The translations under genes were made by a program, and so were the position numbers. Source: an uncultured Anaerolineales bacterium (GTDB taxonomy: Bacteria > Chloroflexota > Anaerolineae > Anaerolineales > UBA11858). Taken from it: a stretch of 64,000 bases of DNA. The notes beneath the pieces were generated by a model, which saw only the letters and a program-made list of their open reading frames with translations, made no database searches and was not told the DNA's origin. Below, piece by piece: positions 10,859 to 53,678 of the stretch (position 1 is the first letter of the stretch; the number at the start of each line of letters is the position of its first letter). The stretch covers positions 859 through 64,858 of the forward strand of contig CAZTJD010000009.1 of the NCBI GenBank assembly GCA_964613985.1. The letters run 5' to 3'.

Positions 10859-10913
10859 GGCAAATTTATCTGATTATTTAGCATTCACACAATTCATCTT
10901 ATAAGGAGGCGCT

Positions 10914-11924: not shown

Positions 11925-11948
11925 TTCATAAATCAAAACGAAGAAATC

Positions 11949-12050
11949 ATGGATTATACAAGCAACGAACGTGTTTTAGCCGCCCTGCAGCACAAAGAAT
12001 CCAACCGAGTACACATAATCGAGCGGAAAGAGCAGGAAAAAGAATGCTGA
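11949..12050 (+). pseudogene. 33-codon remnant resembling the N-terminus of a URO-D-like protein
   Basis: MDYTSNERVLAALQHKESNRVH... resembles the N-terminus of the intact paralogs (MTGRERVKAALTFTAPDRTP...). It ends at TGA 12048-12050, overlapping the permease ATG at 12044. Confidence 0.4.
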
Positions 12051-12967: not shown

Positions 12968-12983
12968 GAGAAAAGCAACCGTT

Positions 12984-14156: not shown

Positions 14157-14167
14157 GGACGCTTTGA

Positions 14168-16147: not shown

Positions 16148-16295
16148 CAACTACAAGGATATGCATCAGCGATAAAATTTAGGACGATTGGAAAGGAGGT
16201 AGGTATATGGATTGAAAAACAAAGATAAGTAGAAGATCAGCAACTGATTGGAAATTCGTGTTTTCGAACTATATTCAAATAATGGAGATAACAAG

Positions 16296-24205: not shown

Positions 24206-24352
24206 CGAACACTCCTCCACGTATGATAGTTATGCGAGTCGAATCTTTAGCAACTGGGGAGATTCCACCATTACCCCAAATCATCAAAATACTGTGCTCG
24301 ATATCCCCAAAAAGAAACATGTCAGTAATTATGTAAGACACAGGTTGTTCTC

Positions 24353-29369: not shown

Positions 29370-37669
<8,300 letters not shown>

Positions 37670-37709
37670 CCTGGCAATCATAGATAGAAAGTTTAAGCTG
37701 AAAATTCTC

Positions 37710-38777
37710 CTAAAGGGAAATACTTACGGCTCCAGTCAGGGAAAGTTCCCTGGCGTGGTGGCATTTCACATAATGAGCAGGTTCAATTTCCTTTAAAGGA
37801 GGTTCATCGGTGGAACAAACGTCTGTCGCATAAGAGCAGCGCGGGTGGAAGTAGCATCCGGATGGTGGGTCAGCAGGGTTAGCAACCTCGCCGCTAAGGA
37901 AAATTCGTTTCTCCCGAGGAAGAGGATTGGGAAGCGGGATCGCTGACATGAGCGCTTCGGTATACGGGTGTTTGGGATTGGTGAATAACTCCCTTGTTGC
38001 TGCTAATTCGACGATCTTCCCAACATACATGACTGCTACACGGTCGCTAATGTGCGCTACAACACTCAAGTCATGCGCAACAAAAAGGTAGGTTAAACCG
38101 AGGTGCTCCTGTAATTCCTTCAACAAATTCAATATTTGCGCCTGTACAGACACATCCAATGCCGAGACAGGTTCGTCACAGACAACAAATGTTGGCAGTG
38201 GAGCCAGGGAACGCGCCAGGCCGATGCGTTGACGCTGGCCACCGCTGAAGGCATGGGGATACCGACGCATGTATTCGGGTCGTAATCCGACCATATTCAG
38301 CATCTCAGCCACCCGGTCTTCAAGTTCTTTCCCACTGGCGATGCCCATCGATTTGAGAGGCGCTCCCACGATTTCCTGAAGGGTCATACGGGGATTTAAG
38401 GAGGCATAAGGATCTTGAAAGATCATCCGGATATGGCGATGGATGATGTTAATCTGCTCTTTTTCAAGCTGGGCAATGTCGATGCGTCCCAAGGATGGGT
38501 CCGTAAACCAGACCTCACCGCTGGTTGGATCAATAGCGCGTAGCATACATCGTCCCGTCGTCGTTTTTCCACAGCCACTTTCACCTACTAACCCTAATGT
38601 TTCCCCTTCGTTTACATAAAAACTTACATCATCGACTGCTTTCACATGCCCGACAACCCTTTTGAAAAAACCGCGAGTAATCGGAAAGTACTTCTTCAAA
38701 CCAATGACTTCCAGCAAAGGCTTATTGTCATCTGTATCCGTCACACTTGGACCTGTTTGGTTAATATTTTCAAGCAT
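37710..38777 (-). CDS. Opp-type ABC ATPase (OppF-like)
   Basis: [30 protein letters not shown]-terminal [10 protein letters not shown]. Confidence 0.9.
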
Positions 38778-38813
38778 TATGATTTCCTTGTAACATGCCA
38801 GCTTAACAGATTT

Positions 38814-39863
38814 CTAGGGGACTGCTTCCGTGTATAGGTGACATCGGACATAGTGTCCGGGTTTTGCCATAATACTCATTGGTTCCACCACATCACAAAG
38901 GTCGGGGATCATTTCGGGACAGCGTGGATAAAATGGGCAGCCCTTGAACTGGGTGTATGGATCAGGCACCATACCCTTGATCGTCTGCAGGCGCTTGCTT
39001 CGATCAGCTAGTGTGATCGTATCATTAAGTTGGGGAATGGACGCCAGTAGCCCACAGGTATAAGGGTGCAGCGGTTCAAAAAAGATGGTTTTTACATCGG
39101 ATTGCTCCACAATTTTGCCCATGTACATCACTGCCACCTCATCCGCCATCTCGGCAATCACGCCCAGGTTGTGAGTGATATACATAATTGCCATACCTAA
39201 CTCGTCCTGGAGTGATCGCATTAGATCCAGGATCTGGGCTTCAGTGGTCACATCCAAGGCGGTAGTCGGCTCATCGGCAATTAACAACGTGGGGTTACAA
39301 CAAAGTGCCATCGCGATTACAGCCCGTTGCCGCATCCCGCCACTTAATTGGAAAGGGTAATCATCAATCACTCGTTCAGGATTGGGCATCTTGGTACGTG
39401 CCAGCATATCAATGGTTTGCTCGATTGCCTCAGTATTGCTTACCTTTTGGTGCAGGATAATGACTTCCGAGATTTGTTTACCGATTGTACGGATTGGGCT
39501 CATCGCCGTCATGGGTTCCTGGAAGACCATTGATATCTGGTTGCCTCGAATATCACGAATTTCACTGCCCCTTGGGTCGAGCGTATGGATTTTTATCTCT
39601 TCCACCATTTCTGAATTATCATCTTCGGATATAGGCCTGTAATAAATAATTTCTCCACTTTCGATCCTGCCAGGATCTGGTATTAACCGCAATAAAGAAA
39701 GGGATGTAACACTCTTACCACAACCACTTTCCCCAACAACGCCCAATGTTTTTCTCTTTCGAACCACCAGGTCAGCACCATCTACAGCTCTCACCACCCC
39801 CTCAGATAGATGAAAGTAAGTATGAAGATCCTTGATTTCTACAAGCACGTCATTTTCGGCCAT
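38814..39863 (-). CDS. Opp-type ABC ATPase (OppD-like)
   Basis: GESGCGKSV, LSGGMRQR, LLIADEPTTALD, C-terminal KGCPFYPRCP. ATG 39863 follows AAGAGG; the ORF opens at 39899. Confidence 0.9.
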   Translation of the reverse strand: MAENDVLVEIKDLHTYFHLSEGVVRAVDGADLVVRKRKTLGVVGESGCGKSVTSLSLLRLIPDPGRIESGEIIYYRPISEDDNSEMVEEIKIHTLDPRGSEIRDIRGNQISMVFQEPMTAMSPIRTIGKQISEVIILHQKVSNTEAIEQTIDMLARTKMPNPERVIDDYPFQLSGGMRQRAVIAMALCCNPTLLIADEPTTALDVTTEAQILDLMRSLQDELGMAIMYITHNLGVIAEMADEVAVMYMGKIVEQSDVKTIFFEPLHPYTCGLLASIPQLNDTITLADRSKRLQTIKGMVPDPYTQFKGCPFYPRCPEMIPDLCDVVEPMSIMAKPGHYVRCHLYTEAVP

Positions 39864-39873
39864 CGAAACCTCT

Positions 39874-41037
39874 TTAAGTAACATATGGATCAGCTGCATC
39901 CCGCATGCCGTCGCCCAGAAAGTTAAACATCAGTACAGCTACAATCACGAAAGCACAAGGCCAGAGTAGCCAGGGCGTTTGGGCAATCGCCCTGATTTCC
40001 TGGGTGTCATTCAGCATCACACCCCAGCTTACGGTCGGTTCATGCAGCCCAATTCCCAGGAAGCTTAGCGAAGTCTCACCCAGGATCATGCCTGGGATAA
40101 ACAGGGTCATTTGCACGATAATATAACTGGCGAACCCGGGAAGCATATAGCGCGTAATAATCCGCCATTCACTTTCGCCATCCAATTTGGCAGCCATAAT
40201 GTAATCTTCTTCGCGCAGGCTCAGCATCTTACCTCGAACCGTGCGCGCCAGCCCGGTCCAACCCAGGATAGAGAGGATGATGGTTACCAATAAATAGGTC
40301 CGCAATTGCGGCCAGTCCTGTGGTAAAGCCGCCGCCAGGGCCATCCATAAAGGAATGGGGGGCATCGAGTACATCACATCGATCACCCTCATCACAACCT
40401 CGTCAATCAAGCCCCCAAAATAACCTGCAGCACCACCCAAAAGCATGCCAAATACAAAAGATAAGGCAATACCAATCAATCCAATGGTTAATGAGATCCG
40501 TCCACCATAGATCACCCGACTGAAGATATCTCGTCCAATCAAGTCACTCCCAAGGAAGAAGACTGGTAATTCGGGATCCGATGTGCCAAACAGGTGAAGG
40601 TCGGTTTTAAACAGTCCCCAGAATTCGTATTCATCGCCATGTACGAGCAGCTTGATCGGGTAAACGGCCTCGATATCTTCCTCGTAAACCGGGCGAAAGG
40701 TTACCGGGTCACGCCCGCGTATGATGCCGTAGATGAATAGCCCTCGAAAATTACCCTGTGTGTCCCGGATATGAATCTTCGAAGGAGCCATGGTGACATA
40801 ATCTTTGAACCTGTGGAGTGCTGCGTATGGGGCGGCAAACTCAGCAAAAATAGCGAATATGTAAAAAATCCCCAGGACAAGAGCACCCAGGTTCGCCAGC
40901 CTATGGCGCCGGAATTTCCACCATACCAACTGCCATTGTCCTGCTCGGTAGAACTCTTCCCCCTTCACTTCTATTTGGTTTTTTTTCATACCTACACGCC
41001 ATTTTTTTCTCTGGGAGTCGATCACTGTATCACTCAT
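39874..41037 (-). CDS. Opp-type ABC permease (OppC-like)
   Basis: ATG 41037 forms an ATGA overlap with the upstream permease stop. N-terminal TM plus loop, then the FLGSDLIGRDIFSRVIYGGRISL core. Confidence 0.85.
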   Translation of the reverse strand: MSDTVIDSQRKKWRVGMKKNQIEVKGEEFYRAGQWQLVWWKFRRHRLANLGALVLGIFYIFAIFAEFAAPYAALHRFKDYVTMAPSKIHIRDTQGNFRGLFIYGIIRGRDPVTFRPVYEEDIEAVYPIKLLVHGDEYEFWGLFKTDLHLFGTSDPELPVFFLGSDLIGRDIFSRVIYGGRISLTIGLIGIALSFVFGMLLGGAAGYFGGLIDEVVMRVIDVMYSMPPIPLWMALAAALPQDWPQLRTYLLVTIILSILGWTGLARTVRGKMLSLREEDYIMAAKLDGESEWRIITRYMLPGFASYIIVQMTLFIPGMILGETSLSFLGIGLHEPTVSWGVMLNDTQEIRAIAQTPWLLWPCAFVIVAVLMFNFLGDGMRDAADPYVT

Positions 41038-42035
41038 GCGCCCTCCAATTTCCCAAAACGTACCCTGGGGTCGATGACGGCTAAACAAATATCCGAAATC
41101 AAGCTGCCTACCGTAACCAACACCCCGGTGATCAGGATGTATGCGCCAGCTGTGTACATATCCTGTCTCAATAAAGAAACCCACAGAACGGGACCAGCAG
41201 TTGGAAGGTTAAGCACCACCTCCACCACCATGCCGCCAGAGAAAAACCACACCAAAAGCCACCCGATGGTGCTGATAAGAGGGTTAAGGGCAATGGGTAT
41301 CGGATAACGCATCAAAACCTGCATCTCTGAAAGCCCTTTCGATCGAGCTACAGTCACATATGGCTTACGCAGTTCATCCAGCATGGTAGCTCGCAGGGTG
41401 CGGATGACATTTGCCGTCCCACCGATTGCCAGGATGATCACCGGGATCCAGAGATGACCTAAAAAATCGACAATTCGATCCCAATTCCAAGGCAATACCA
41501 GGTATTCTGGCGAGTTCAGACCTCCCACACTGACCCCGAATTTACTCCAGGCGAAATACATGATCACTAGGGCTAACAAGAACCCAGGTGTAGCCAATCC
41601 AAAAAAGCCCATAAGCGTAAAGAAGTAATCTGCGAAGGAATACTGCTTCACTGCCACATAAATTCCAATTGGGATCGCTAATCCCCAACTCACAATGAAG
41701 CTTAAAAATGCAATAAAAAAGGTGGTGCCCATCCTGGATAAGAGGATCTCGTTGACCGATCTGTTGAATGAGAACGAATAACCAAAATCCAGCTTAGTGA
41801 TGATGTTTCCAATCCACTTGAGGTACTGTACACTCAGTGGTTGATCAAGGCCATACATCCTGGTGAATCTGGCAACTTGCAACTCATCTATTGTCACACC
41901 GCTTGCTCTCAAGCGATTGAGATATTCAGTAAGATAATCACCTGGTGGGAGTTGGATGATGATAAACGCCAGAACGGAAATGATAATAATTTGTGGGATC
42001 ATGCGCATCAGACGCTTGATGATATACCCTAACAT
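41034..42035 (-). CDS. Opp-type ABC permease (OppB-like)
   Basis: MLGYIIKRLMRMIP start 8 nt after AAGGAGG (the track start at 42044 is a GTG inside the RBS). YVTVARSKGLS motif. Confidence 0.85.
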   Translation of the reverse strand: MLGYIIKRLMRMIPQIIIISVLAFIIIQLPPGDYLTEYLNRLRASGVTIDELQVARFTRMYGLDQPLSVQYLKWIGNIITKLDFGYSFSFNRSVNEILLSRMGTTFFIAFLSFIVSWGLAIPIGIYVAVKQYSFADYFFTLMGFFGLATPGFLLALVIMYFAWSKFGVSVGGLNSPEYLVLPWNWDRIVDFLGHLWIPVIILAIGGTANVIRTLRATMLDELRKPYVTVARSKGLSEMQVLMRYPIPIALNPLISTIGWLLVWFFSGGMVVEVVLNLPTAGPVLWVSLLRQDMYTAGAYILITGVLVTVGSLISDICLAVIDPRVRFGKLEGA

Positions 42036-42330
42036 TAGATGCACCTCCTTCTTACTGGGATAAGAATATTATACATGTTTTAAACCATCATGTGGGTGGG
42101 TTGCGGAGTAATAAATAGAGGGGGAAACGGCAGGTATCACTCAGAGGTTTCCTGAACAGAGTGTGGGATTGACGACAATATCACAGGATGAATTCGACCT
42201 TTTAAACAGGATCTAAGGACAGCCCAACTCGTATTAAAAAAAGGGGGGGCTTAACTTACCAGCTTTGGTCCTTCCAAATGTTCAATGGACAACTCTAAAA
42301 CAATCTAACTCGAGGGAGACGCAAATTAGA

Positions 42331-42373
42331 TTCATAAAATACAGGATGCAAACACAGAGCTTGCATCCTGTAT
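42331..42373 (-). terminator. Hairpin terminator/attenuator after the binding-protein gene
   Basis: On the minus strand: atacaggatgcaa-gctctgtgt-ttgcatcctgtat (13-bp stem) followed by tttatg. It lies 16 nt after the SBP stop. Confidence 0.65.
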
Positions 42374-42388
42374 TGATTCAGTTAAATC

Positions 42389-44491
42389 CTAGGCCCGAAC
42401 GCCACCTTCGTAGAAGAAGGCTTCAGGATGATAGGTTGATAGGCCGTAAGTGTCCCAGCCGATTGTTGCTTTAGGTCGCGGCAGGTTTCGCAGGTTCTTA
42501 TTGAACAGCAGCGGAGCTGGGATCTCCAAAACTAGTCCAATCTCCAGAGGCTTATCTGCCAGGTAATCGAAGATCATCTGCCCGTACTTGACGCGCTCGT
42601 CTTCACTGACCACCGAGGTAACCTGATCAAAGTAGCCATAAAGCTCTTTGATCTCATCGGGCGGCTGAATCAGGTCTTCTGCCGTGCGGTCAGCCGCATT
42701 GAACCAGTTGTTCCAGGCAGCACAGGCACCTCCCTGCTGGGGGTCACCCGTTGGGATGTACCACTGCGGTTGGACGTGCCATAGCAAATCCGTGCAGCGG
42801 TCGGCATGCCAGATGCCACAATGGGTCTGGAAGTTCTGCATACGTTCGTTGTACAAGGCTTCCTGCATCTCTTTGGCGGAGGTATCGATGCCAATCTCAC
42901 GCCAAAAGGTAGTGGTCATCTCGCAGATTTTAGCGATAGCGGGACCGACGCGAGGACCACAGTGTTCGATCAGGTATGCCAGTCGTTCGCCATCCGGGCG
43001 TAGTCGGAAGCCCTCGGAGTCTCTCTGGTCCAAGCCCATCTCGTCCAGTAGCTGGTTGGCAAGGTCTGGGTCATACTGCGCCCAGGCTTCACCATATTCT
43101 GGTTTGTAGTACTTAGACGAAGGTATTGGGGCTTGTTGTCCCATGCGTGCCAATCCAAAGAACAAGCTTTCGTTGATCTCGCTGCGGTCGATCGCCACAG
43201 ACAGCGCCCGAACCCAGTTCGGATGGTTGACAATCTCAGTCAGTACAGGATCATCGACCAGATAATGCTGCGGGAACAGGACAGGCCTGTCGCTCATGCA
43301 GGAGATAAAATCACCTACCACCCAGGAACTGTCGGCCTCATTCTCCTTATAGAGCGGGAAATTGGCAACCGTGACATCATGCATCCCGACGGCATCTAGT
43401 TGGTCCTGAAGGATCATAAGCTGGGTATTTTCTAAAGTGGAAGAATAATCGTAACGCAGCGTGTCAATGTAGGGCAGCTGGTTGCCTGCCAGGTCCACTT
43501 TCCAATAGTATGGGTTGCGCTCTAACAGGAAGAGGCCTTCTGAGGGGCGCTCAACAATCATCCAGGGGCTTAATACAGGGTAGTTATCCTCTACAATCCA
43601 ATCAGGACCTTGCCATACCCCGGCTCCCCATTGATTAAAGCGTTGGCTTGCTAACTGGACCCAACCCTCAAGACCCAAATCCGCAGCTTTCGCATTCAAT
43701 TCCGCCTCGTCGCCATACTTGGGCAAGTATTGCTTCAAGTAATGGGCGGGGGCGATAAAGCTGTCCCAGTTATTGGGTTCCATACGGGTTATGTGAGCCG
43801 GGAAGTTCCCAAAAGGTGCTGCATGGGTGATTTTGAAAGTGTAATCATCGATGATGTCTACCTTCATATTCTCGCCACCAAAGCGGAACTTCCAGACCAC
43901 ACTCGCATTAAGATCTGTGTTAAGATGAAAATCCTCCCAGTAAAAGCGGACATCTTCGGTTGTGAGTGGCTCACCATCAGAATATTTCATGCCTTTACGC
44001 ATGTAAAATGTATATTCTTTGCCATCGGGAGTAACCTCCCAGCTTTCGATGATATTCCCGACGATGGTGCGCATGTCGAGATCCGTATAGTGCAGGAGAC
44101 GTTCAGCATTCCAGTCGTAGTTGCTGACAAACCAAACTGGGTCAAAGTGTTGCATTCGAACTTCGCCACCGTATACACCGATGGCATCACGCCCCCCTAC
44201 CACGGCTGGATTCTCTGGTAAGCGTTCGTCCACCGGAGGGAGCTCACCAGCAGCAACTTTATCCGCCAGGAAAGGTGGCTCGGCTCTACCCGCCTCCACC
44301 TCCACCTCAACGATCTTGGTTGCCTCAACGATTTTCTCCTTTTCGATCTCAACGATCTGGGTCTCCTTGATCACTTCCGTGATCACTTCTGGTTCGACTG
44401 TCCCAGCACCACAAGCTGTTGCAAGTGCCCCTAGAACTGTCGTAGCCGACATTTTCAAGAAATCTCGGCGTTTAATTTCTGGTGTTTTCAT
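42389..44491 (-). CDS. Large family-5 ABC substrate-binding protein, Tat-signal lipoprotein (probable oligosaccharide binder)
   Basis: MKTPEIKRRDFLKMSATTVLGALATAC combines a twin-arginine motif with a lipobox. An E/V/I/K-rich linker precedes the SBP_bac_5-like body. ATG 44491 follows GGAGG; the ORF opens at 44503. Confidence 0.85.
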   Translation of the reverse strand: MKTPEIKRRDFLKMSATTVLGALATACGAGTVEPEVITEVIKETQIVEIEKEKIVEATKIVEVEVEAGRAEPPFLADKVAAGELPPVDERLPENPAVVGGRDAIGVYGGEVRMQHFDPVWFVSNYDWNAERLLHYTDLDMRTIVGNIIESWEVTPDGKEYTFYMRKGMKYSDGEPLTTEDVRFYWEDFHLNTDLNASVVWKFRFGGENMKVDIIDDYTFKITHAAPFGNFPAHITRMEPNNWDSFIAPAHYLKQYLPKYGDEAELNAKAADLGLEGWVQLASQRFNQWGAGVWQGPDWIVEDNYPVLSPWMIVERPSEGLFLLERNPYYWKVDLAGNQLPYIDTLRYDYSSTLENTQLMILQDQLDAVGMHDVTVANFPLYKENEADSSWVVGDFISCMSDRPVLFPQHYLVDDPVLTEIVNHPNWVRALSVAIDRSEINESLFFGLARMGQQAPIPSSKYYKPEYGEAWAQYDPDLANQLLDEMGLDQRDSEGFRLRPDGERLAYLIEHCGPRVGPAIAKICEMTTTFWREIGIDTSAKEMQEALYNERMQNFQTHCGIWHADRCTDLLWHVQPQWYIPTGDPQQGGACAAWNNWFNAADRTAEDLIQPPDEIKELYGYFDQVTSVVSEDERVKYGQMIFDYLADKPLEIGLVLEIPAPLLFNKNLRNLPRPKATIGWDTYGLSTYHPEAFFYEGGVRA

Positions 44492-44610
44492 TTCTTCCTC
44501 CATTATAAAATTAGATTCTGATTACGACTTAATACAGCATCAAACAACGCCAAACTGGCAATGTTCCCAATATTACTTTATCATCGCTTAGACTGGATTA
44601 CTATCACTTT

Positions 44611-44641
44611 AAGGACACATTATTGAATTTTTAGGACACAT
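44611..44641 (-). promoter_or_regulatory. Direct repeat pair ATGTGTCCT(A/T)AA phased 21 bp apart, candidate AraC-type activator site for the importer operon
   Basis: The minus strand reads gATGTGTCCTAAAAattcaataATGTGTCCTTAAAg. GTCCT cores at 44637-44633 and 44616-44612. The pair lies about 110-150 nt upstream of the SBP start. Confidence 0.45.
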
Positions 44642-44647
44642 CTGGTT

Positions 44648-47236
44648 CTAAATTCTTTCAGCTTGATCTTTGAGATCACGATTGCTAATAGGTTCGAAGT
44701 TGAGGCGCAAGGCATCCTCGCCATATCCAATTTCCATTTGCTTGCAGGGAAATCTGGAGGCGGCGAAGATACTCTCATAATGCTCGTATCCAGAGAGTGG
44801 TTCCTCCTGCCCATCTCGCATGAAAGGTTTATCCCAACCAAAGGTAAGTGTCTCATTCCGCAAAGTCGTACAGCGGACAAATCCATCCTCAAATGCGATG
44901 GGTAAGGCCAATACCTTGTCCTGGAATATACTAAAATCAACATCCAACGCTTTCCGTCCCATGTGGCACAGCCAGACATTGTCTTGTCCGAACGAACGTA
45001 ATTCCCGATAAGCATATTGCCCCCGGCGGATGAGGTCGAATCCTCTGGCGGCAGTTAAAGCCAGATAGCCCTCAGCCTTACGGGCAAAAGCCCAGTTACC
45101 TTGGAAGACATATTCATCGAAGGCATAAATTGGAAAATAAGCATGGGTAAAGCCCATCCAATCATCTTCTGGAAGCTGATAGAATGCAATAAGAATGTCC
45201 TTCCATTGGGCGACTCTCGGCAGGGTGGAATTACCAGCCCAAAAGTTCGCTTGACGGGCATCCTTCTCACTCGTACTTGCCGGATGGGTGACGAAAACCG
45301 TGGCATCTGCGCCTAATGTTGCCTGCCAAATATGCTCTAGTTTTCCATTTTTACCAGGTTTATAATCCTGAGCGGAACAAAGCATTGTATCGGGGGTCTT
45401 GTAGGTAACCTTGTTCACAAACAATTCATCTTCTAACGCATGACGTTCCCGGTTCCATAACTCCTCTGGTCTTGAGTTGGCAATACCGGAGATAACCGAA
45501 GGGAGTTCATACCCGTTCATGCAGGCTAAGCTGACTGTCCCAGCGATATGATGGTTGAAGATTCCAGTCCCCCACATCAGCCGGGTAATACCAGATGTAG
45601 GCTCTAAGTAACCTCCTTTCACAAATGAGGCGTACGTTCGACCGTGGGTCGACCCAAACACACCTTGAAATGAATTGATTGCGATTGTAGTAAAAAGTTT
45701 GTCCATCAAAATTGCTGACATTTCTCGTATAGATTCGTCCTCAGCCAGGTCCACCAGGTGGGCAAGTATGGCAAGATACGATTCGAAAGACACATTCGAA
45801 TCCCAGGCTGAAAATCCTTGGGTACTGCATCGATGCAACCAGTCCAAAATCAGACCAACACCATGTTCACGGTGCCATTGCCCCATTTTCCCAAGATGCG
45901 TGAATGTTCTAACGGGATAAAGCTGCCCTGCCAGGACTTCACTGGCATGTAGCAAGATTTGGTCGCTCTCGCGGTCTCCAGGATCTGCCGTCCATCCTGT
46001 ATCAATTCCAAAAGGGAAACCCAGGATTATTCCCTCGATAGGTTTTAGTAATTCCTTGGGAAACTGCTTGTGATTGCCAAACCGGCATACCATCCCTAAG
46101 ATACCCAATAAATCCAATCCGTGCAGGGTTTTCAAGGTACTAAAGATAATGTCAGTGTCAATCGCTTTCCACTGGTCGAGAACCATTTTGGCGATCTCTG
46201 CAAATAAGCCCTTCTCATTAGAGGCGTTGACCAAGGCTTCCTGACGTCGTTCCTCATACGAACCGTAGGGGAAAGCTGAATACCTTTTTCTACCCAGGTT
46301 CCATAAATTGAACTCGTGCGTTATCCTTAGATCTTGTTCGTAATATTCTCCGATGAGAGGCATCATCAGGATTCTGTAAGGTCCTTCTGGGATTTGGTAG
46401 GGCAGGCTGAGAAAAACCTGGTCGCCTGGGGTTCCATCAACGGTTGCCTCAGCATAAATTCGCCCGGTTGGCGTTTGGAGACGAACCACTGCTGGAGAAG
46501 CCTTTTCCATATCTTCTGTCCAGTGAAGATTAATCTGGCTTTCACCTTGGAAAACATCCTGGAGGATGAATGCGGCTTGATATGCCCGTTCAATATCATT
46601 CCGGCGCGAGATATCGGCGATCAGGGTTGGGATCGTCACGTGAATGCCTGAATACGCAGGGTAAGGTTGCCCGGGTGAAACTGCCTCGCAAACTTGCAAC
46701 GCCATAACATTTGGGCATTGCAGTAGGGCAACTGCCTCAAAACGCACCAATATCTTATTAACACCTTTTTTTAAAAACACTTTGAATGAGGTGCTGCCTG
46801 GGTGTTGATCGAAAAAATGCTCCTGGCGATGTACATGTTCCCAGTTCAGCCAGACATCCGCCGGACCATGAGTGGTCAACACCAGCAACACTTCCTGGTC
46901 CATTTTGCATGTAAGTTGGGTATATGCCCAGGAACGAAGGTAATGAGGGGTAGGATAAGATCCTGAATGGTCAACCTGGTGATCCTCCCGGCAGGTTTGA
47001 TAATCCCATGAACCCTTGTAATCTCCAACCTGAAAGAATCCTTTGGTTAATGGACCTCGTTCAACAGGCGTTTGGTTGATCCCAGACCGGGATTCGAAAA
47101 AATATTGCGCGATCTGCTTCCTGAGATCCTCTCCTTGGAAATTATCGACATCAAACGGAATCCGCTGAGGACCAGCAACCAGCCAGTTGTGAATGTACCC
47201 GTGCTCAAGGTTGTAGTTAACATGGCGATAGCGCAT
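44648..47236 (-). CDS. Conserved-looking 862-aa cytoplasmic protein of unknown function (candidate novel carbohydrate-active enzyme)
   Basis: A long uninterrupted ORF with no signal peptide or TM. By composition it has an N-terminal beta-rich region, a central helix-rich region and a C-terminal beta-rich region. I recognised no catalytic motif. Confidence 0.6.
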   Translation of the reverse strand: MRYRHVNYNLEHGYIHNWLVAGPQRIPFDVDNFQGEDLRKQIAQYFFESRSGINQTPVERGPLTKGFFQVGDYKGSWDYQTCREDHQVDHSGSYPTPHYLRSWAYTQLTCKMDQEVLLVLTTHGPADVWLNWEHVHRQEHFFDQHPGSTSFKVFLKKGVNKILVRFEAVALLQCPNVMALQVCEAVSPGQPYPAYSGIHVTIPTLIADISRRNDIERAYQAAFILQDVFQGESQINLHWTEDMEKASPAVVRLQTPTGRIYAEATVDGTPGDQVFLSLPYQIPEGPYRILMMPLIGEYYEQDLRITHEFNLWNLGRKRYSAFPYGSYEERRQEALVNASNEKGLFAEIAKMVLDQWKAIDTDIIFSTLKTLHGLDLLGILGMVCRFGNHKQFPKELLKPIEGIILGFPFGIDTGWTADPGDRESDQILLHASEVLAGQLYPVRTFTHLGKMGQWHREHGVGLILDWLHRCSTQGFSAWDSNVSFESYLAILAHLVDLAEDESIREMSAILMDKLFTTIAINSFQGVFGSTHGRTYASFVKGGYLEPTSGITRLMWGTGIFNHHIAGTVSLACMNGYELPSVISGIANSRPEELWNRERHALEDELFVNKVTYKTPDTMLCSAQDYKPGKNGKLEHIWQATLGADATVFVTHPASTSEKDARQANFWAGNSTLPRVAQWKDILIAFYQLPEDDWMGFTHAYFPIYAFDEYVFQGNWAFARKAEGYLALTAARGFDLIRRGQYAYRELRSFGQDNVWLCHMGRKALDVDFSIFQDKVLALPIAFEDGFVRCTTLRNETLTFGWDKPFMRDGQEEPLSGYEHYESIFAASRFPCKQMEIGYGEDALRLNFEPISNRDLKDQAERI

Positions 47237-47251
47237 GAGTATGGGTGTCTC

Positions 47252-47698
47252 CTAATCGATACTATTTATCTTTTTATCCCTGACTGCAGCCAATGCCAGG
47301 CCTATACCTAATTCAGATGCGAGAATCAGCCAACGTAGCAGGTCATCACTGCGAATTCCTTGCAGCCAGAAGAGAATTAAATCAACGGCAAAAACACAAA
47401 GCAACAAAGGTCCAGTAACTCTGGCAAAACGCTTGAGTAGAGACTCGTTCCTGGCACCTGTGCGATAAAAATCTTCAGTGATGATGGAAAATACCAACCA
47501 ACCTAAACCAAGGATAACGGTGAACACAATGTTTATAAAATTCACCATCTTTGTATATTCATAATTACCTGTCTTATAAAACAAGGCGAGAAGACCAAGG
47601 AGTACTGTTCTGCTGATATAAGTAAGCCAGCCAGCCAATCCTAGATCCACAATCCATAAAGCATATGCAGTTACATATTTAAGGATTCTTTCCAACAT
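47252..47698 (-). CDS. Small 4-TM membrane protein, unknown function
   Basis: 148 aa with four clear hydrophobic helices. It overlaps the upstream receiver gene by 20 nt. Confidence 0.6.
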   Translation of the reverse strand: MLERILKYVTAYALWIVDLGLAGWLTYISRTVLLGLLALFYKTGNYEYTKMVNFINIVFTVILGLGWLVFSIITEDFYRTGARNESLLKRFARVTGPLLLCVFAVDLILFWLQGIRSDDLLRWLILASELGIGLALAAVRDKKINSID

Positions 47699-48071
47699 AC
47701 TTTTTCGTCAGAATTGATTCCAAGGCGGCTTGGAAATCTGCGTACAATATGGGCATCCGCATGTACATGTCTGCCCCTTCCGCCAATGCAAGGTTCTCTT
47801 CATCCAACCATGAACAGACAATTATCGGTATTCTACCTGCTTCCGGATCGGTTTTCAACTCTCGAAGGATTCGCCAACCAATAGTTTCGGGTACATCAAC
47901 CGCTAACACAATAACAACGGGTTTCTCGCAACGGGCTAAAGCAAGTAGATCATCCCCAAGATTCCCAGCAATAATCTTATAAGCGCTTCTCCGAACATAA
48001 CGCTGCATTAAATACAAGAAATGAGAATTTTCCCCTACGATCATGATACGATTTTTTAAAATCTGGTCCAT
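47679..48071 (-). CDS. Stand-alone receiver (REC) domain protein with degenerate active site
   Basis: 130 aa with a CheY-like pattern. The acidic pair is replaced (IMIVGENSH). The phospho-acceptor-position Asp is present (LAVDVPE). S is at the T/S position (IIVCSW). The conserved Lys-Pro is replaced by RMP. Confidence 0.7.
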   Translation of the reverse strand: MDQILKNRIMIVGENSHFLYLMQRYVRRSAYKIIAGNLGDDLLALARCEKPVVIVLAVDVPETIGWRILRELKTDPEAGRIPIIVCSWLDEENLALAEGADMYMRMPILYADFQAALESILTKKYVGKNP

Positions 48072-48148
48072 CTTACCCTCATGTAAAGAGAGGTGTTTTC
48101 CATACTGGTTTTTTATACTTTACACGGTTGGATGAAATAAATCTTCCA

Positions 48149-48179
48149 TTTTTGGGACGTAGATTAGCACTTCTGGGAC
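48149..48179 (-). promoter_or_regulatory. Direct repeat pair (T/C)GTCCCA(G/A)AA phased 21 bp apart, candidate AraC-type site upstream of the receiver gene
   Basis: The minus strand reads tTGTCCCAGAAgtgctaatctaCGTCCCAAAAatgg. GTCCCA cores at 48178-48173 and 48157-48152. The pair lies about 80-110 nt upstream of ATG 48071. Confidence 0.45.
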
Positions 48180-48251
48180 AAATTAAGATCAGTTTTTTAA
48201 CCCAGTTCGTATGTTTACTGTCGCCTTTAAACTCTCAACCAATCCCTCAGG

Positions 48252-51200
48252 TTATTTGTTGCTATCCAAACACCGACTCTGTAAATAAGCCCGAGGGGAG
48301 ACCCCCACTTGTTCTCGAAAAACACGAGTAAAATAACTGCTGCTAGAAAATCCGACTTCCATAGCTATCTCAGTGATCCCCATTCTGCCTTCATCCAACA
48401 TAACTTTTGCCTGTTTTACACGGTAACGGTTGAGATAAGTGATTGGCGTTATCCCCACTTCCTGACGGAAACAACGCGTCAGGTGGCGTTCACTTAACCC
48501 TACATATTTGGCAACATCGCTACGGGAGACAGGTTCAGTGTAATTGGCATGAATATAAGCCATTGCTTTCAAAGCGAGTCGCTGTATTTCTACACCGGGT
48601 TTACGCTTTCGTTCCAGGGCGTTGGTCAGGTGTTCCAATGTTTCATCAACGCTGAACATGCCTTTCCCGAGTACGCTTGCAGCACCAGCGTTTAGGCGAG
48701 ACATATCTTCATCTGTCAGCATTTGTCCAGTGATCACCACGACTGGGGTGCTGCGGGTTAAATCGTTTTTCCGCATTTCCTCCAATACACCAAAGCCATC
48801 GAGCTCTGGCATCAATAAATCGAGCAGAACCAATGAGGGTCGCTCCTTATAAATCAGTTGCAGCGCTTGGCGCCCATCTCTTGCAAAAAGAATTCGATGG
48901 CCTGGCAATTGAGCTTCAATGATACGGGCATGGAGTTCTAGAATCCCTGGATCATCATCTACAACCAGAATGGCCCTTCCATCATCCCAGGAACCTTCTG
49001 AATTTAACAATCCCTTTGAAGATATCAGTTCCGTCAAGGCGGCCGGTCCAAGTGGCTTGGTCAGATAATCGATTTCCAGGAATGAGACTCCCTCAGCATT
49101 ATCTTTTACTGCATAAAACACGACAGGAATTTCTTTTGTGGCGGGGTTCTCTTTTAGGATTTTAAGAATTTCCCAGCCGCGTTCTGAAGTCAAGCCGAGA
49201 TCGAGCATTACTACATCAGGCGCCGCAAGCAGCAGGTTAGCTAACCAGTCATTGTCTTCCTGTAATAAACACAACTCTGCCTCATAACCGTGTTTAATGA
49301 GGTGTCCTATCAGGTGACCACTACCTTCTTCGTGCTTAACCAACAGGAGTACTCGTTGCGCTTCGGAAAAGGGAACGAACTTTTCTGATAAATTCTCTTG
49401 TCGTTCGAAGATCGGTAAGGAGAAGAAAAACATCGAGCCTCCCCCTTCGTCGCCGGAAGAGTATACGCCAATCTCACCACCATGCATTTCTACCAACTTC
49501 CGGCAAATGGCCAACCCTAAGCCCAAGCCACCATAGCCGCGAGCGGTAGCGCGTTCTGATTGACGGAACTCATCGAAGATCACCTTCTGTTCATGCAGGG
49601 GAATACCCAGGCCTGTATCAATCACGGACACGATAATATGCCCCTTTTCAAGCCTGGCGGTCAGGTTTATTTCTCCACGTGTGGTGAATTTAACCGCATT
49701 GTTGACCAGATTCAGAGCAACCTGGCGTAGACGGGTACGGTCACCCCAAACACGAGGCAGATTTCGAGCAATTTCATCATGCCAAGCCAACCCTTTATCG
49801 CGAGCAAGTTGCTCGCCAATCACGATTACGGCGTCCAAAACTTCAGTTATGTCTAATGGCTCACAAACGAGTTTCAATTGACCCACATCACTGCTAGCAA
49901 GATCCAATACATCCCGAATTAAACCATCCAAATGTTGGGCACTGATGTAAATACGTTGCAGGTCTTCTTTAATACTGATTTGAGGATCCGCCTGGAGATT
50001 TTCCCCGCTTTCATTTGTTTCATCTAATAGAATGTTGCTTAGTCCAGTGATCAGGTTTAGAGGTGTGCGTAATTCATGGCTGACCATAGAAAGAAATCGG
50101 CTTTTCAGGTGATTTGCCTCCTCAGCTAACTGTTGTGCTGCCACAGCCTCCCGGTATAGTCTAACACTTCGCAGCGACGCACCCAATTGCCGTACAATAT
50201 CCGCACAGGGACTCAAGTTGCTGGCATCAAAGGAGACAAATCCGCACACATCATTTTGTATCGTCAAAGGAAGTACTGCTTGTTGGTAAGCTTTTTCTTC
50301 AGGATAAAGTCCCCTGGGAGGGAAACTACGAGTTGGGAAACGATACTCTGGTTCGAGGCGTAATTTCCTATTAAATGAACAACAAGGTGTCTGTAGCACA
50401 CTCCATGCGACAGGATCTTGCTCCTCTTCTTCATAATATCCCACTGAGGCATCATGAATCCCAATCGAAGGCAAGTTCTTGATTAATACATCAAAAATTT
50501 CCTGTTCATCATTTGCAACAAAGAACTTACTGGTCATCAAGCCAACCTGGTCTGCTTCGCGCGCCTGTTTGAGTAAAGCCCGTGTGAATTGCCCAAGAGC
50601 AACCTCACTGATGGCAACGCGCCCCTGGTGAAGTAAATCCTCTTCCTGGTGGACAGAAAGTCGGGTCGAGACTACTTGGTGGATCAAATGGAGTTGGTCT
50701 CGTAAAATTGTGATTGCAGTTTGCCAAGTAAAAAGATCATCTCCACGAATAGACACACGCTGCAGGATCTTCTTAATCATCATTAGAAAGTTCTGTGGAT
50801 TATTCTGTTCCAGACTCAATAAGAACGCTTCTACCAGTTGAGTCACCGTAGAGACAATTTCATCTTTGTTCAACCATAACGATTCTTTGTGAACTGCGGA
50901 GGTCATTTGCTCAATCAAATGAGAAATAACATCGTACGTTTTCCTCTCCTTTTCAACCTTACTGGCTCCTTCATTGTCCTTAGTGCCAAGAACTCCCTGT
51001 AAACATCCACAGGACTCCCGAATCACCAGGTTAGTTGGGATAAGAACCAACTCCTCGTTCACTGATTCTCCTTCGATAGCTCGCAACAAAAGGCCAACGG
51101 ACTGGTAGCCTAAGCCAAACATTGGGTAATGTACTGTGGTGAGAGGTGGGTTTACCGCACGAGCTTCAAGCCGGTCGTCAAAACCGATTATGGCGATATC

Positions 51201-51914
51201 CTGCGGTACTTTTAAACCAGCCTGGTTTAAACCATCTAATACCCCCATTGCTGATCGATCGTTGCTGGCAATCACAGCTGTAAAATTTTCGCCCTGATTG
51301 ATGATCTTCTGAATGGCTTGGCGTCCACCTTCGTAGAGGTGTGAACCATACGCAACCAGCTTCGGATTAAAGGGTAGTCCAAAGGAAATTACTTCGTCTT
51401 CGAACGCACGTAAGCGAATTCCACTATCCCCGTGTTCTGAATGTTGGCGACCAGCCACGAAAGCAATCCGGCGGTGACCATGTTCCACAAGATGCTCAAC
51501 TGCCTGGTGGATACCTCCATGGTTGTCAGCGACAACGCCTGGTCCGGAATCGCGATCACCAGCATAAACGGTTGGAAAACCGCTGGAAACCAGATCCCTG
51601 GCGTAGCAATCCCCCGCTTCCGAAGCAAAAGGGGAAACGATAATTAATCCATCCGTATTCCAAGGACCAACCGGCACAAAGTCAACTTCAGGTGAGAGTA
51701 ATGGCCAGGCAGGTTTTCCAGGGTCAATGCCGCAAGCCATTAGCAGGTTACAATCGTATTCACTCGCCGCAGCCTGGATGCCTCTAAATACATGCTCAAG
51801 GAAGCTATCTGGAGTTCCCGTATATACTTTCCATCCAGCCAATACACCGATCGTGACCCTGCCATGTTTACCCATGGATTTCATGATACCATTTATAGAC
51901 TTCAACCGGTCCAC
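48252..51914 (-). CDS. Soluble hybrid sensor-regulator: PBP1 sugar-binding domain, GAF-like linker, HisKA, HATPase, REC (degenerate), REC, AraC-type HTH
   Basis: 1220 aa, GTG start (alternative ATG at 51884). A LacI-type ligand domain without HTH (VTIGVLAG..., AVIASNDRSAMGVLDGL, IIGFDD). H-box SHELRTPLN. N/G boxes NLVNNAVKFT, DTGLGIP, GGLGLGLAICRKLVEMHGG. REC2 VVDDDPG...LLDLLMPELDG. C-terminal AraC HTH (SERHLTRCFRQEVGITP...GFSSSSYFTRVFRE). No hydrophobic segment. Confidence 0.85.
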   Translation of the reverse strand: MDRLKSINGIMKSMGKHGRVTIGVLAGWKVYTGTPDSFLEHVFRGIQAAASEYDCNLLMACGIDPGKPAWPLLSPEVDFVPVGPWNTDGLIIVSPFASEAGDCYARDLVSSGFPTVYAGDRDSGPGVVADNHGGIHQAVEHLVEHGHRRIAFVAGRQHSEHGDSGIRLRAFEDEVISFGLPFNPKLVAYGSHLYEGGRQAIQKIINQGENFTAVIASNDRSAMGVLDGLNQAGLKVPQDIAIIGFDDRLEARAVNPPLTTVHYPMFGLGYQSVGLLLRAIEGESVNEELVLIPTNLVIRESCGCLQGVLGTKDNEGASKVEKERKTYDVISHLIEQMTSAVHKESLWLNKDEIVSTVTQLVEAFLLSLEQNNPQNFLMMIKKILQRVSIRGDDLFTWQTAITILRDQLHLIHQVVSTRLSVHQEEDLLHQGRVAISEVALGQFTRALLKQAREADQVGLMTSKFFVANDEQEIFDVLIKNLPSIGIHDASVGYYEEEEQDPVAWSVLQTPCCSFNRKLRLEPEYRFPTRSFPPRGLYPEEKAYQQAVLPLTIQNDVCGFVSFDASNLSPCADIVRQLGASLRSVRLYREAVAAQQLAEEANHLKSRFLSMVSHELRTPLNLITGLSNILLDETNESGENLQADPQISIKEDLQRIYISAQHLDGLIRDVLDLASSDVGQLKLVCEPLDITEVLDAVIVIGEQLARDKGLAWHDEIARNLPRVWGDRTRLRQVALNLVNNAVKFTTRGEINLTARLEKGHIIVSVIDTGLGIPLHEQKVIFDEFRQSERATARGYGGLGLGLAICRKLVEMHGGEIGVYSSGDEGGGSMFFFSLPIFERQENLSEKFVPFSEAQRVLLLVKHEEGSGHLIGHLIKHGYEAELCLLQEDNDWLANLLLAAPDVVMLDLGLTSERGWEILKILKENPATKEIPVVFYAVKDNAEGVSFLEIDYLTKPLGPAALTELISSKGLLNSEGSWDDGRAILVVDDDPGILELHARIIEAQLPGHRILFARDGRQALQLIYKERPSLVLLDLLMPELDGFGVLEEMRKNDLTRSTPVVVITGQMLTDEDMSRLNAGAASVLGKGMFSVDETLEHLTNALERKRKPGVEIQRLALKAMAYIHANYTEPVSRSDVAKYVGLSERHLTRCFRQEVGITPITYLNRYRVKQAKVMLDEGRMGITEIAMEVGFSSSSYFTRVFREQVGVSPRAYLQSRCLDSNK

Positions 51915-53678
51915 ATGAGTTTAGTAATTGTGCTTAAAAATATACAACACCAATCCTTATTATACCTAATCTTCGTCATTTTCCTTTATGGCGCTTTACT
52001 CTTGCCTTCGGTTCCTCGGCAAGGTATATCGTGGGATGAGCAAACGGATATTGATATTGCCAGATTTTACCTATCACAGCCTGGAGGTTGGTTGCTTGGC
52101 TCAGATTCTGATCCAAGTCAGGCTCGTCTACCGATGTACGTCGTGGCAATGATCTATAAACTTATAGGAGTGGATAATCTGCTGACAGCCCGGTACACGA
52201 GTGTTATTGTGGGTGGACTAACAATCTTGGGGGTTTATATCTTTTGTAAACAGGAGTACGACTCGAAGCGAGGTGTTCTTGCGGCAGGTATTCTGGCGAC
52301 AAGTCCATTTTTTTTGTCATTTGCGAAGACTGCATTCACTGAGACGGATATTTATGCCGCCTGCCTCTTCATCTGGTTTCTAGTATGTTTCTCAAATTTT
52401 CATGCAAAGCGCACCATCATGTCTGCCTGGATCGCTGCAGCTGTCTTGGGTTTGGCGATATCCTCCAAGTTCACAGCATTATTTCTTTATCCAGCCATAC
52501 TGGTCCATATCTTTTCCTGGCTGGGTCAGAATACGAAGCAAGCAAATATCCGCCTTCGCGCCATTGTTGGTATCGCTGTACCCTTGATTATATTATTTTC
52601 AATAGCCTTCCTTAGCTGGACTGGTGCTGATCTCCCATTTGGCGCTCAAAATAATACCGTCGTCGCAGTGACCTATTATTTATTGGCGATGATTTGTTGG
52701 GCAGTAATCTTGCTTTGGGTTGCAAACCATCATGATCAAACCGCTTCCCCATACATCCTGGGAATCCTGGTTTTAGTCCTGGCAACCACCACCTTCATTA
52801 TGTTCCCTCCGGTGCACCTCACCAATCCTGATATTATTCATAGTTTATTTTACCGGGTAGATCATGAAATGGGGCTGAATTTAAAATTTATGGTGGAGGC
52901 AATTGGACTACATTTGGGGTGTGTGATATTTAAGTCAAGTCCAATGGTGGGGTTCGGACTTCTTGCAGGAATTATTTGGGCTGTCCTGCAGTGGAAGAAG
53001 CAAAAGCAGGTTCGCATGCCTCTCCTGGTAGTGATTTTTTATTTTATGGGGCTTGCTAGCCTGCCAATTGCGCAAACTTTTTACATGGTGCCATTGCTTC
53101 CATTCCTGGCGATATTAGGGGCAGATCTTTGGTTCAGTCTTCAATTCAGTCATCAAAAGTTGGCAGTACTTGTCGGAGTCGTTGCGATTTTCTTATTGGC
53201 TGTGGATTTAGCTTGCTGCTACCCTGATTACAACCTGAATGGTTACCAGTGGTTGGGACCCAGGAATTTTTTGGGCAGACCAACCATAGGATACCGAAGT
53301 ATCGTCCAGACCACCTCCGATGGAGTTCAACAGACCATTCAATGGGTGTGTCAAAATGCGAAGCATGATGATCGGGTTGTGATATTCGCGTATCCCTGGC
53401 ACATCGTTGAAGCCAGTTGCCCGGACCCAACCTTTCGTATCAGCCGTGGACAACAAGATTCATTGCTTTCCAGACCTGATTTTGTGCTTATCCATATCAA
53501 TCATCGGATTCGTGCCAGCTGGTCTGCCTGGATTCCTAGGTGGGATAGCAGCCAACCTGTAGATAGTATTTTCTGGGAACCCTGTGATAACGACTGGTTG
53601 GATGAGAACTATACCAAGGTATATTCTGTGCCAAGAGCGTTTGGGATCGAAATGGCAAGTGTATACCAAAGGAAGTAA
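51915..53678 (+). CDS. GT-C-fold membrane glycosyltransferase (ArnT/PMT-like, GT39/GT83-type)
   Basis: About 587 aa from ATG 51915 (MSLVIVL...), more than 10 TM. First-loop acidic motif GISWDEQTD. C-terminal soluble domain. The ORF opens at 51792 inside the divergent gene. Confidence 0.65.
   Translation: MSLVIVLKNIQHQSLLYLIFVIFLYGALLLPSVPRQGISWDEQTDIDIARFYLSQPGGWLLGSDSDPSQARLPMYVVAMIYKLIGVDNLLTARYTSVIVGGLTILGVYIFCKQEYDSKRGVLAAGILATSPFFLSFAKTAFTETDIYAACLFIWFLVCFSNFHAKRTIMSAWIAAAVLGLAISSKFTALFLYPAILVHIFSWLGQNTKQANIRLRAIVGIAVPLIILFSIAFLSWTGADLPFGAQNNTVVAVTYYLLAMICWAVILLWVANHHDQTASPYILGILVLVLATTTFIMFPPVHLTNPDIIHSLFYRVDHEMGLNLKFMVEAIGLHLGCVIFKSSPMVGFGLLAGIIWAVLQWKKQKQVRMPLLVVIFYFMGLASLPIAQTFYMVPLLPFLAILGADLWFSLQFSHQKLAVLVGVVAIFLLAVDLACCYPDYNLNGYQWLGPRNFLGRPTIGYRSIVQTTSDGVQQTIQWVCQNAKHDDRVVIFAYPWHIVEASCPDPTFRISRGQQDSLLSRPDFVLIHINHRIRASWSAWIPRWDSSQPVDSIFWEPCDNDWLDENYTKVYSVPRAFGIEMASVYQRK

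Follow-up and report, generated by a model that had tools for sequence, protein, structure and literature searches.

The 64-kb stretch of DNA analyzed here (64,000 nucleotides of an uncultured Anaerolineales bacterium; hereafter, the window) carries on its minus strand, at positions 48252-51914, a gene encoding a multidomain regulator, in which a sugar-binding-type sensor, a histidine kinase, two receivers and an AraC-type DNA-binding domain follow one another in one polypeptide. The gene is a single uninterrupted open reading frame (ORF) of 1,220 amino acids (aa) when read from the GTG codon at 51912-51914, as the initial annotation of the window had it; the true start is probably Met11 (ATG at 51882-51884, 1,210 aa), since an identical protein in NCBI, P0001 (1,210 aa), begins at this residue, as does the consensus built from the homologues. 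Apart from the GAF-like linker, the domain set proposed in that annotation was recovered by Pfam (Peripla_BP_1/3, HisKA, HATPase_c, two stretches of Response_reg, HTH_18/HTH_AraC), and every domain call behind the logic of a hybrid two-component system (HTCS), that is, sensor, kinase, receiver and AraC output in one soluble protein, was reproduced.

The N-terminal part of the regulator (51000-51857, minus strand, aa ~20-305) is a type-I periplasmic binding protein (PBP) domain of the LacI/GalR effector-binding type, lacking the LacI helix-turn-helix (HTH). It matches Peripla_BP_3 (E = 8e-37, aa 139-302) and Peripla_BP_1 (aa 36-298) in Pfam, and in a sequence search of PDB its best match was an ancestral LacI transcription factor (1.6e-34), with CcpA and PurR proteins at 1e-29 to 1e-20 and transport solute-binding proteins not among the top-scoring ones; the earlier assignment of this domain to the PBPs holds in both searches. 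The LacI-type HTH (PF00356) was absent from the regulator in the Pfam scan; a classical LacI regulator encoded in the same window (10914-11924) does score for this family. In the AlphaFold2 (AF2) model of aa 1-600, the confidence measure pLDDT is 82 overall and mostly 80-95 in the PBP domain. BLASTP against Escherichia coli LacI yielded 29% identity over 216 aa and aligned R167, N218 and D246 of the sensor with R197, N246 and D274, sugar-contact residues of LacI. This triad is retained in, respectively, 113, 97 and 111 of 115 family representatives (at most 50% identical). According to these alignments, the sensor belongs to the type-I PBP effector domains and has a conserved pocket of polar residues.

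The most conserved part of the whole sensor cassette, regardless of the output attached to it, is the motif R-x-S-C-G-C at the boundary between the PBP domain and the following linker (R-E-S-C-G-C in the regulator; 51003-51020, minus strand, aa 299-304). C302 and G303 are present in all 115 representatives and C304 in 112 of them; two further cysteines of the sensor, C55 and C61, are conserved in approximately 70%. The CGC motif may bind a metal or be redox-active at the junction of the dimer.

The linker between sensor and kinase comprises 290 aa and matches zero Pfam families; modeled alone by AF2, it has pLDDT 90. In the two AF2 models, the PBP fold is linked by a disordered hinge at aa 306-320 to a bundle of four or five helices (aa 326-412); next come a helix of 45 residues and an alpha/beta domain (aa 470-565), and a last helix (aa 570-599) leads into the dimerization and histidine phosphotransfer (DHp) helices of the kinase. 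Two parts can be delineated, a helical one of ~145 aa, modeled by AF2 and without a family match (50520-50954, minus strand, aa 321-465), and a predicted divergent GAF-like domain of ~125 aa (50145-50519, minus strand, aa ~466-590), which ends in the signaling helix running into DHp and contains a conserved loop, RFPSRxFPPxGLYP (aa 525-537), and an invariant G558. Pfam, searched with the linker at E ≤ 10, reported no GAF, GAF_2 or GAF_3, only noise (MshEN, zf-H2C2), and Foldseek found nothing in PDB at E ≤ 1e-3 for the linker model. The top Foldseek matches are nearly all GAF domains (those of a dual-sensor kinase, PtsP, Lcd1, PDE5/6, phytochromes), but they are weak (E 0.012-0.3, target TM-scores 0.43-0.49). 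The alignment of the family over aa 415-600 was also compared by hhalign with a profile of Pfam-verified GAF domains from related proteins, and the C-terminal half of the linker matched columns 5-160 of the 160 GAF columns (probability 83%, E = 1e-5). The helical half, used as a control, reached a probability of 0.1%. Of the GAF-like linker of ~250 aa described earlier, only the C-terminal half looks GAF-like, and only by fold and profile comparison. Judging by the models and profiles, the linker appears to consist of a novel bundle of helices and, after it, a probable divergent GAF domain.

The histidine-kinase core (49413-50105, minus strand; HisKA at aa 604-676 and HATPase_c at aa 724-834 according to Pfam) has intact H, N, G1, F and G2 boxes, with the phospho-acceptor H613 within SHELRTP; the motifs SHELRTPLN, DTGLGIP and GGLGLGL, listed in the initial annotation, are all found, with hardly any variation across the family. 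The best NCBIfam matches for the kinase and the first receiver are BarA/TorS/ArcB (E 1e-62 to 1e-69), well below the curated cut-offs. No histidine phosphotransfer (HPt) domain was found in the regulator by Pfam, and the NCBIfam matches end ahead of the HPt region; a phosphorelay dependent on HPt was rejected on these grounds. Alignment with CheY shows that receiver 1 (49005-49367, minus strand, aa 850-970) is degenerate, as, out of the five-residue active site (DD, D, T/S, K), only D905 and K953, both invariant in the family, are present, the acidic pair being K-H and the Thr/Ser position being Ala. Receiver 2 (48615-48992, minus strand, aa 975-1100), containing the better of the two Response_reg stretches (aa 982-1086), has all five residues, D986/D987, D1032, T1062 and K1084. 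Both patterns are conserved across the family, in line with the degenerate-then-canonical order reported earlier, as are H613 and D1032. The output is an AraC/XylS-type double HTH (48279-48512, minus strand, aa 1135-1212; HTH_18 at E = 3e-25, HTH_AraC in two stretches). Such a domain order suggests that the regulator arose by fusion of a hybrid kinase with a receiver-AraC regulator.

No transmembrane (TM) segment was detected in a Kyte-Doolittle scan of the regulator with 19-residue windows: zero windows exceeded 1.6 along the protein, and the maximum, 1.54, lies inside domain cores, while adjacent membrane proteins gave 21 and 67 windows above 1.6 in the same scan. The first PBP strand begins after just ~10-18 residues, and therefore a signal peptide cannot fit. 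The absence of TM segments and of a signal peptide, claimed initially, is thus supported by hydropathy and by an N-terminus that runs into the PBP fold; since the LacI HTH is missing as well, the regulator is, by its sequence, a soluble, cytoplasmic protein.

The regulator belongs to a large family. The 120 best database matches, originating from NCBI, JGI, ENA and Logan assemblies, are all full-length (~1,200 aa), with the same architecture and 52-77% identity, and, where named, are called "substrate-binding domain-containing protein" of an Anaerolineae or Anaerolineales bacterium. A scan of genomes, one per species (GTDB), with the alignment of the first 600 aa as the query confirmed at least 508 relatives having the sensor module among the first 600 candidate stretches, almost all of them in Chloroflexota; an earlier scan with a single N-terminal sequence had produced 70 pattern matches and zero relatives. 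The best 80 of these relatives all cover aa ~10-600, and in 77 of the 80 loci the full-length protein is encoded. They come from Anaerolineae, Thermoflexus, Caldilineaceae, Roseiflexaceae and Chloroflexus, with Chloroflexus sp. MS-G as the only record among the 80 not labeled as a metagenome-assembled genome (MAG); several MAGs contain at least two copies of sensor-module genes. Two full-length relatives carry labels from other phyla: locus L018 (Thermoleophilia, 607 kb), which also has the complete orthologous synteny, and locus L052 (Pleurocapsa minor, 215 kb). These labels are due to mis-binning, mislabeling or horizontal transfer out of Chloroflexota.

Among 1.84 billion representatives of clusters at 50% identity, 1,383 matched at E ≤ 1e-30, this number being an upper bound, as plain LacI regulators may qualify. 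The best 150 of the 1,383 mostly span the PBP domain and the linker, some being shorter fragments, and combine the sensor cassette with various outputs: kinase-receiver-receiver-AraC in ~30 of 150, GGDEF in ~20-28, and also kinase-receiver-AraC, kinase alone, receiver-AraC without a kinase, GAF-GAF-HD_5, PAS/GAF arrays with a kinase, and a form annotated as RsbU/PP2C. Examples of the ~590-aa cassette fused to GGDEF, receiver-AraC, HD_5, PAS/GAF-kinase and RsbU/PP2C outputs are proteins P0127, P0131, P0136, P0168, P0250 and P0257. A literature search did not find a published description of the architecture, although absence there is not proof of absence. The initial annotation had named an architecture both common and already characterized as a point that would undermine its reading; since no published characterization was found, only the first half applies. 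The architecture thus represents a large, paralog-rich Chloroflexota family that is not rare and is uncharacterized in the literature found.

All large ORFs from 51914 down to 23486 share the strand of the regulator, and both the ORF list and Pfam agree with its earlier description as the head of a ~28-kb same-strand array of importer and glycosidase genes. The next gene, REC130 (47679-48071, minus strand), encodes a stand-alone degenerate receiver of 130 aa that lacks the acidic pair and has the Asp displaced and the Lys replaced (Pfam score 30.1 bits vs. the cut-off of 30.2). Its end is overlapped by 20 nt by the start of TM148 (47252-47698, minus strand), a gene for a small protein of 148 aa with ~4 TM segments and no family match; the pair is kept in orthologous loci L001-L021, L081 and L082 and is what would be transcribed first from the candidate promoter described below. 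It is followed by unk862 (44648-47236, minus strand), whose product, a conserved soluble protein of 862 aa, matched nothing in Pfam, NCBIfam or, by sequence, PDB. For this protein, 619 homologues were found, all named ones being "hypothetical protein" and all named sources being Anaerolineae, and its gene always sits between the pseudo-receiver/TM pair and the gene of a binding protein. The product of unk862 probably is an undescribed carbohydrate-active enzyme, the pathway-specific enzyme of the regulon.

Further downstream, the block 37710-44503 (minus strand) encodes this SBP_bac_5-type binding protein (SBP5, 42389-44503; a weak twin-arginine signal match, 16.8 bits vs. the cut-off of 16.7) and an OppB/C/D/F-type ABC importer. 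The block 29370-37609 contains two glycoside hydrolase family 2 (GH2) genes, the first one encoding a beta-galactosidase (34229-37609 and 29370-32675, minus strand), with a gene for a TMEM260-like glycosyltransferase (32566-34239, minus strand) between them, and the genes of a 954-aa FtsX-domain permease, a GH42 beta-galactosidase and an ABC ATPase occupy 23486-29226 (minus strand). According to tblastn, the order of regulator, REC130, (TM148), unk862, SBP5, OppB and OppC is conserved in loci L001-L021 at 49-70% protein identity, and in L082 the synteny extends through OppBCDF, TMEM260-like and GH2 genes, with a divergent PMT_2 gene upstream as in the window. Paralogues of the regulator (42-47% identity) have different neighbors, namely, GH6; GH1 with GH16/CBM11; SBP_bac_1 (twice); and CoA-transferase. 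In locus L081, which belongs to a complete genome (GCA_041301925.1, a 4.44-Mb contig, 9163-14808), a cluster of receiver, TM, unk856 and SBP5 genes follows NiFe-hydrogenase genes, with neither an adjacent regulator nor Opp permease genes.

Comparison of the spacers between the regulator gene and REC130 across the orthologues exposed a candidate operator. The spacers vary from 74 to 475 bp and are otherwise unrelated in sequence, and despite these differences a direct repeat is kept at the same place in 19 orthologous loci. The pattern TGTCCnnnAA-N11-CGTCCnAAAA (consensus second half-site YGTCCnAAAA), scanned with at most three mismatches, matches the window exactly twice, both times on the gene strand, with 0.7 matches expected by chance. 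Candidate operator A (48150-48180, minus strand; TGTCCCAGAAGTGCTAATCTACGTCCCAAAA, half-sites 21 bp apart, 0 mismatches) lies 79 bp upstream of the REC130 start and is abutted by a −35-like AAGAT, with a −10-like TAAAGT at 48117-48122. Candidate operator B (44608-44638, minus strand; TGTCCTAAAAATTCAATAATGTGTCCTTAAA, 2 mismatches) lies 105 bp upstream of the SBP5 start and has TAAAGT at 44575-44580, that is, at the same +37 offset. Both site classes aligned read TGTCCnAAAAnT...(21 bp)...YGTCCnAAAAnTGnAAGAC, with the −35-like AAGAC at +14 and the −10-like TA(A/C)AGT at the invariant +37 from the second half-site. Across related loci totaling 1.2 Mb, the pattern has 38 matches, of which 31 occupy these two positions in orthologous loci and mostly carry no more than one mismatch (L082 carries both sites, and L081, the SBP5 site at 12564-12594 with 0 mismatches), whereas the other seven are scattered three-mismatch matches, none of them beside a paralogue.

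A pair of direct half-sites spaced by two helical turns and adjoining the −35 element is the classical layout for AraC/XylS activators, as in I1-I2 of AraC, and the conserved cluster codes for no DNA-binding domain other than the AraC domain of the regulator. Given this and the conservation of the sites, the comparative evidence argues strongly for control of two promoters by the regulator, those of REC130-TM148-unk862 and of SBP5-oppBCDF and the following genes. A search of the window with half-sites only gave chance-level results apart from the two tandem pairs. General scans of the region 37000-52500 also were at the chance level and were not used, with 24 sigma-70 consensus matches found vs. 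22 expected, and 11 terminator consensus matches vs. 15.5 expected. In loci L004, L005, L007 and L009-L014, there is a spacer downstream of the operator and promoter, in several cases filled with differing short tandem repeats, e.g., ACGAATT ×10 or GTAGTCCG/GTAGTCT arrays of ~300 bp.

Several known systems share features with the regulator. Like the HTCS of Bacteroides, it has the sensor, HisKA, HATPase, receiver and AraC domains in one polypeptide, lacks HPt, and belongs to a paralog-rich family, each member adjoining a different glycan-utilization locus. In BT1754, the Bacteroides HTCS fructose sensor, the sensing domain is a periplasmic PBP fold, and the N-terminal fragment of aa 1-376 includes a TM segment (PMC3404733); a PBP-fold sensor is thus common to both proteins. 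Unlike the HTCS, the regulator has no TM-bounded periplasmic sensor, its PBP domain being of the cytoplasmic LacI/GalR repressor type; it has an additional transmitter (the helical bundle plus GAF) and an additional degenerate receiver, and its loci, found in the phylum Chloroflexota, use ABC importers rather than SusC/D, with SBP_bac_5/Opp, GH2, GH42 and GH31 matches, and no SusC/SusD-type Pfam match, among the scanned neighbor proteins. The kinase and receiver 1 match BarA, TorS and ArcB best, but the regulator differs from these proteins in the absence of HPt and of a TM sensor, in the degeneracy of the first receiver, and in the added receiver 2 and DNA-binding domain.

E. coli XylR is a member of the AraC DNA-binding family with a LacI/GalR ligand-binding domain (PMC3561964). 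In both XylR and the regulator, a cytoplasmic LacI/GalR-type sugar-binding domain governs an AraC-type domain of the same polypeptide, and the activation of genes for sugar transport and catabolism, known for XylR, is the role proposed for the regulator; the difference is that XylR is a one-component protein of ~390 aa, whereas in the regulator a GAF-like/kinase/receiver insert of ~800 aa separates the sensor from the AraC domain. With LacI, CcpA and PurR the regulator shares the effector-binding fold and the conserved R/N/D pocket residues, but not the N-terminal HTH; its output would proceed via phosphorylation and the AraC domain, and the family-specific CGC motif replaces the C-terminal tail of LacI. 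Finally, in three-component sugar sensors of firmicutes, such as CuaD-CuaS-CuaR of Ruminiclostridium cellulolyticum (PMC5663094) and XylFII-LytS-YesN of Clostridium beijerinckii (as cited in PMC5663094), the same order of elements leads from a binding protein via a histidine kinase and an AraC-family response regulator to an ABC sugar importer. There, however, the elements are three separate proteins, with an extracellular binding protein and a membrane kinase, and sensing takes place outside the cell. By analogy, the regulator is a fused, intracellular counterpart of systems such as CuaDSR.

Taking all this into account, we consider it reasonably probable that the regulator acts in the cytoplasm as a two-component system contained in one polypeptide, operating like an inside-out version of a Bacteroides HTCS, and that it activates two promoters. 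A carbohydrate imported by the adjacent SBP5/Opp-type ABC transporter would bind in the cleft of the LacI/GalR-type domain; since two GH2 genes and one GH42 gene are located nearby, the ligand is probably, though we hold this loosely, a beta-galactoside-derived oligosaccharide or a product of one. The ensuing change in the sensor dimer would reach the DHp helix after passing the invariant CGC junction, the helices of the bundle and the cryptic GAF domain in turn, the HisKA/HATPase core would autophosphorylate H613, and the phosphate would be transferred to D1032 of receiver 2, directly, as the regulator has no HPt. The AraC domain, released or dimerized, would then bind the 21-bp-phased repeats abutting the −35 regions and activate both promoters. 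The degenerate receiver 1 and the induced pseudo-receiver REC130 probably carry no phosphate and, more speculatively, could modulate the relay by dimerization, insulation or feedback.

Several observations weigh against this explanation or narrow its scope. In the window scan, no operator was found before the GH2, FtsX, GH42 and distal ABC-ATPase genes or the upstream GH31 gene, and hence regulation is supported for two promoters and not for the whole 28 kb. From the initial suggestion of a candidate master regulator of the 28-kb array, we retain the part backed by the conserved candidate operator at two promoters and by the synteny reaching the TMEM260-like and GH2 genes, but not the part concerning the distal FtsX, GH42 and ABC-ATPase genes and the upstream GH31; transcription reading through from the SBP5 promoter could cover the GH2 genes. 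A quick search for phased direct repeats beside four paralogous regulators yielded nothing convincing, which limits the operator model to the orthologous group of the regulator. Locus L081 retains operator B in spite of having no adjacent regulator gene, so that the operator could belong to another regulator, and the window scan found no site upstream of the regulator gene itself. The last two facts fit an alternative in which the TGTCC repeats serve another factor, while the kinase-AraC protein controls other genes or itself. We regard this as improbable, because in the loci examined sites occur at these positions only in orthologues of the regulator and never beside paralogues, the geometry (a pair of direct half-sites with 21-bp spacing, directly adjoining the −35 element) suits a dimer of the AraC family, and the conserved cluster encodes no other DNA-binding protein.

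Other counterarguments concern the input. The position of LacI D149 is occupied by Gly in the sensor, and the most conserved feature of the latter, CGC, is unexplained and hints at an unnamed input. That the ligand is a sugar is presumed, since several of the closest solved relatives are CcpA proteins, and CcpA binds a protein partner, HPr-Ser-P. The ligand could also inhibit the kinase instead of stimulating it, and, more generally, the residues, sites and synteny are observed, and the ligand identity, the sign of regulation, the phosphotransfer and the DNA binding are inferred. Alternatively, the sign may be opposite, or the PBP domain may serve mainly for dimerization, as a scaffold, or have as its ligand a phosphorylated metabolite or, as in CcpA, another protein, with the signal entering through CGC (metal or redox) or through a pocket of the cryptic GAF domain with its RFPSRxFPPxGLYP loop. 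The invariance of CGC (112-115 out of 115, above that of any pocket residue), the ~70% conservation of C55 and C61, the strongly conserved loop and invariant G558 of the GAF-like domain, the CcpA proteins among the best PDB matches, and the use of the sensor module with GGDEF, HD-GYP and PP2C outputs that are not specific to sugar catabolism all speak for such an input. Yet the three sugar-contact residues of LacI are conserved, sugar importers and glycosidases adjoin the orthologue and several paralogues, and the GAF similarity is weak, and we consider this set of possibilities rather unlikely as a whole. The chance is negligible that the ORF is an artifact, with separate PBP, kinase and regulator genes fused during assembly or annotation, or that it is a decaying pseudogene. 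The one unusual point is that the ORF opens with a GTG located 10 codons ahead of the likely ATG; the catalytic residues are all conserved, the full-length protein is intact in the 77 genome loci mentioned above, and more than 120 full-length homologues at 52-77% identity, which agree in architecture and length, were obtained from separate assemblies and sources, which excludes the assembly fusion considered in the initial annotation.

Going beyond the inside-out HTCS interpretation, one may entertain a more daring proposal, of which we are doubtful when all of its parts are taken together: the ~590-aa unit of PBP, CGC, helical bundle and cryptic GAF would be an undescribed universal cytoplasmic sensor cassette used throughout Chloroflexota, the CGC motifs of the two subunits would pair and gate sugar signaling as a metal- or redox-active site, and the kinase-receiver-receiver-AraC members would be an independent, cytoplasm-sensing reinvention, around ABC importers, of the strategy of HTCS and polysaccharide utilization loci of Bacteroides.

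Some other genes of the window are worth mentioning. An ORF for a PMT_2 membrane glycosyltransferase-like protein (51792-53678, plus strand) overlaps the 5′ end of the regulator gene, its real start probably being ~120 codons further downstream than that of the listed ORF. The TMEM260-like and PMT_2 genes, located in and flanking the glycosidase array, respectively, and both syntenic in L082, are unusual company for a catabolic locus. The FtsX permease and the separate ABC ATPase, resembling a MacB-like pair, bracket the GH42 gene, and no operator was found there. At 10914-18041 (plus strand), the gene of the classical LacI repressor with HTH (10914-11924) stands in front of another Opp-type ABC importer, which has an SBP_bac_5 gene of its own (11903-18041); two Zn/Fe alcohol dehydrogenase genes and two URO-D-like genes follow. 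This arrangement is the conventional one-component counterpart within the same window. At the start of the window, near the contig end, the gene of an IS21-family IstB helper ATPase (99-842, plus strand) represents a remnant of a mobile element.

The HTCS are the textbook case of coupling glycan sensing to locus-specific activation in gut Bacteroides, and their sensing is periplasmic. Here, a comparable all-in-one kinase-to-AraC design would work wholly in the cytoplasm of Chloroflexota, having expanded beside different glycoside hydrolases and ABC importers. Domain shuffling in two-component signaling will not surprise specialists; still, the wholly cytoplasmic HTCS-like logic, the expansion over glycan loci in a poorly cultured phylum and the candidate operator make a well-defined system open to direct tests. 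The CGC junction, the helical bundle, the cryptic GAF domain and the orphan unk862 are concrete targets for structural and enzymological studies, and a soluble protein combined with a defined 31-bp candidate operator is a compact candidate for a sugar biosensor. Chloroflexota, notably Anaerolineae, are abundant carbohydrate degraders in sludge, sediments and soils, yet they are mostly uncultured, and therefore a readable code linking regulators, operators and importers would permit prediction of their substrate preferences from MAGs.

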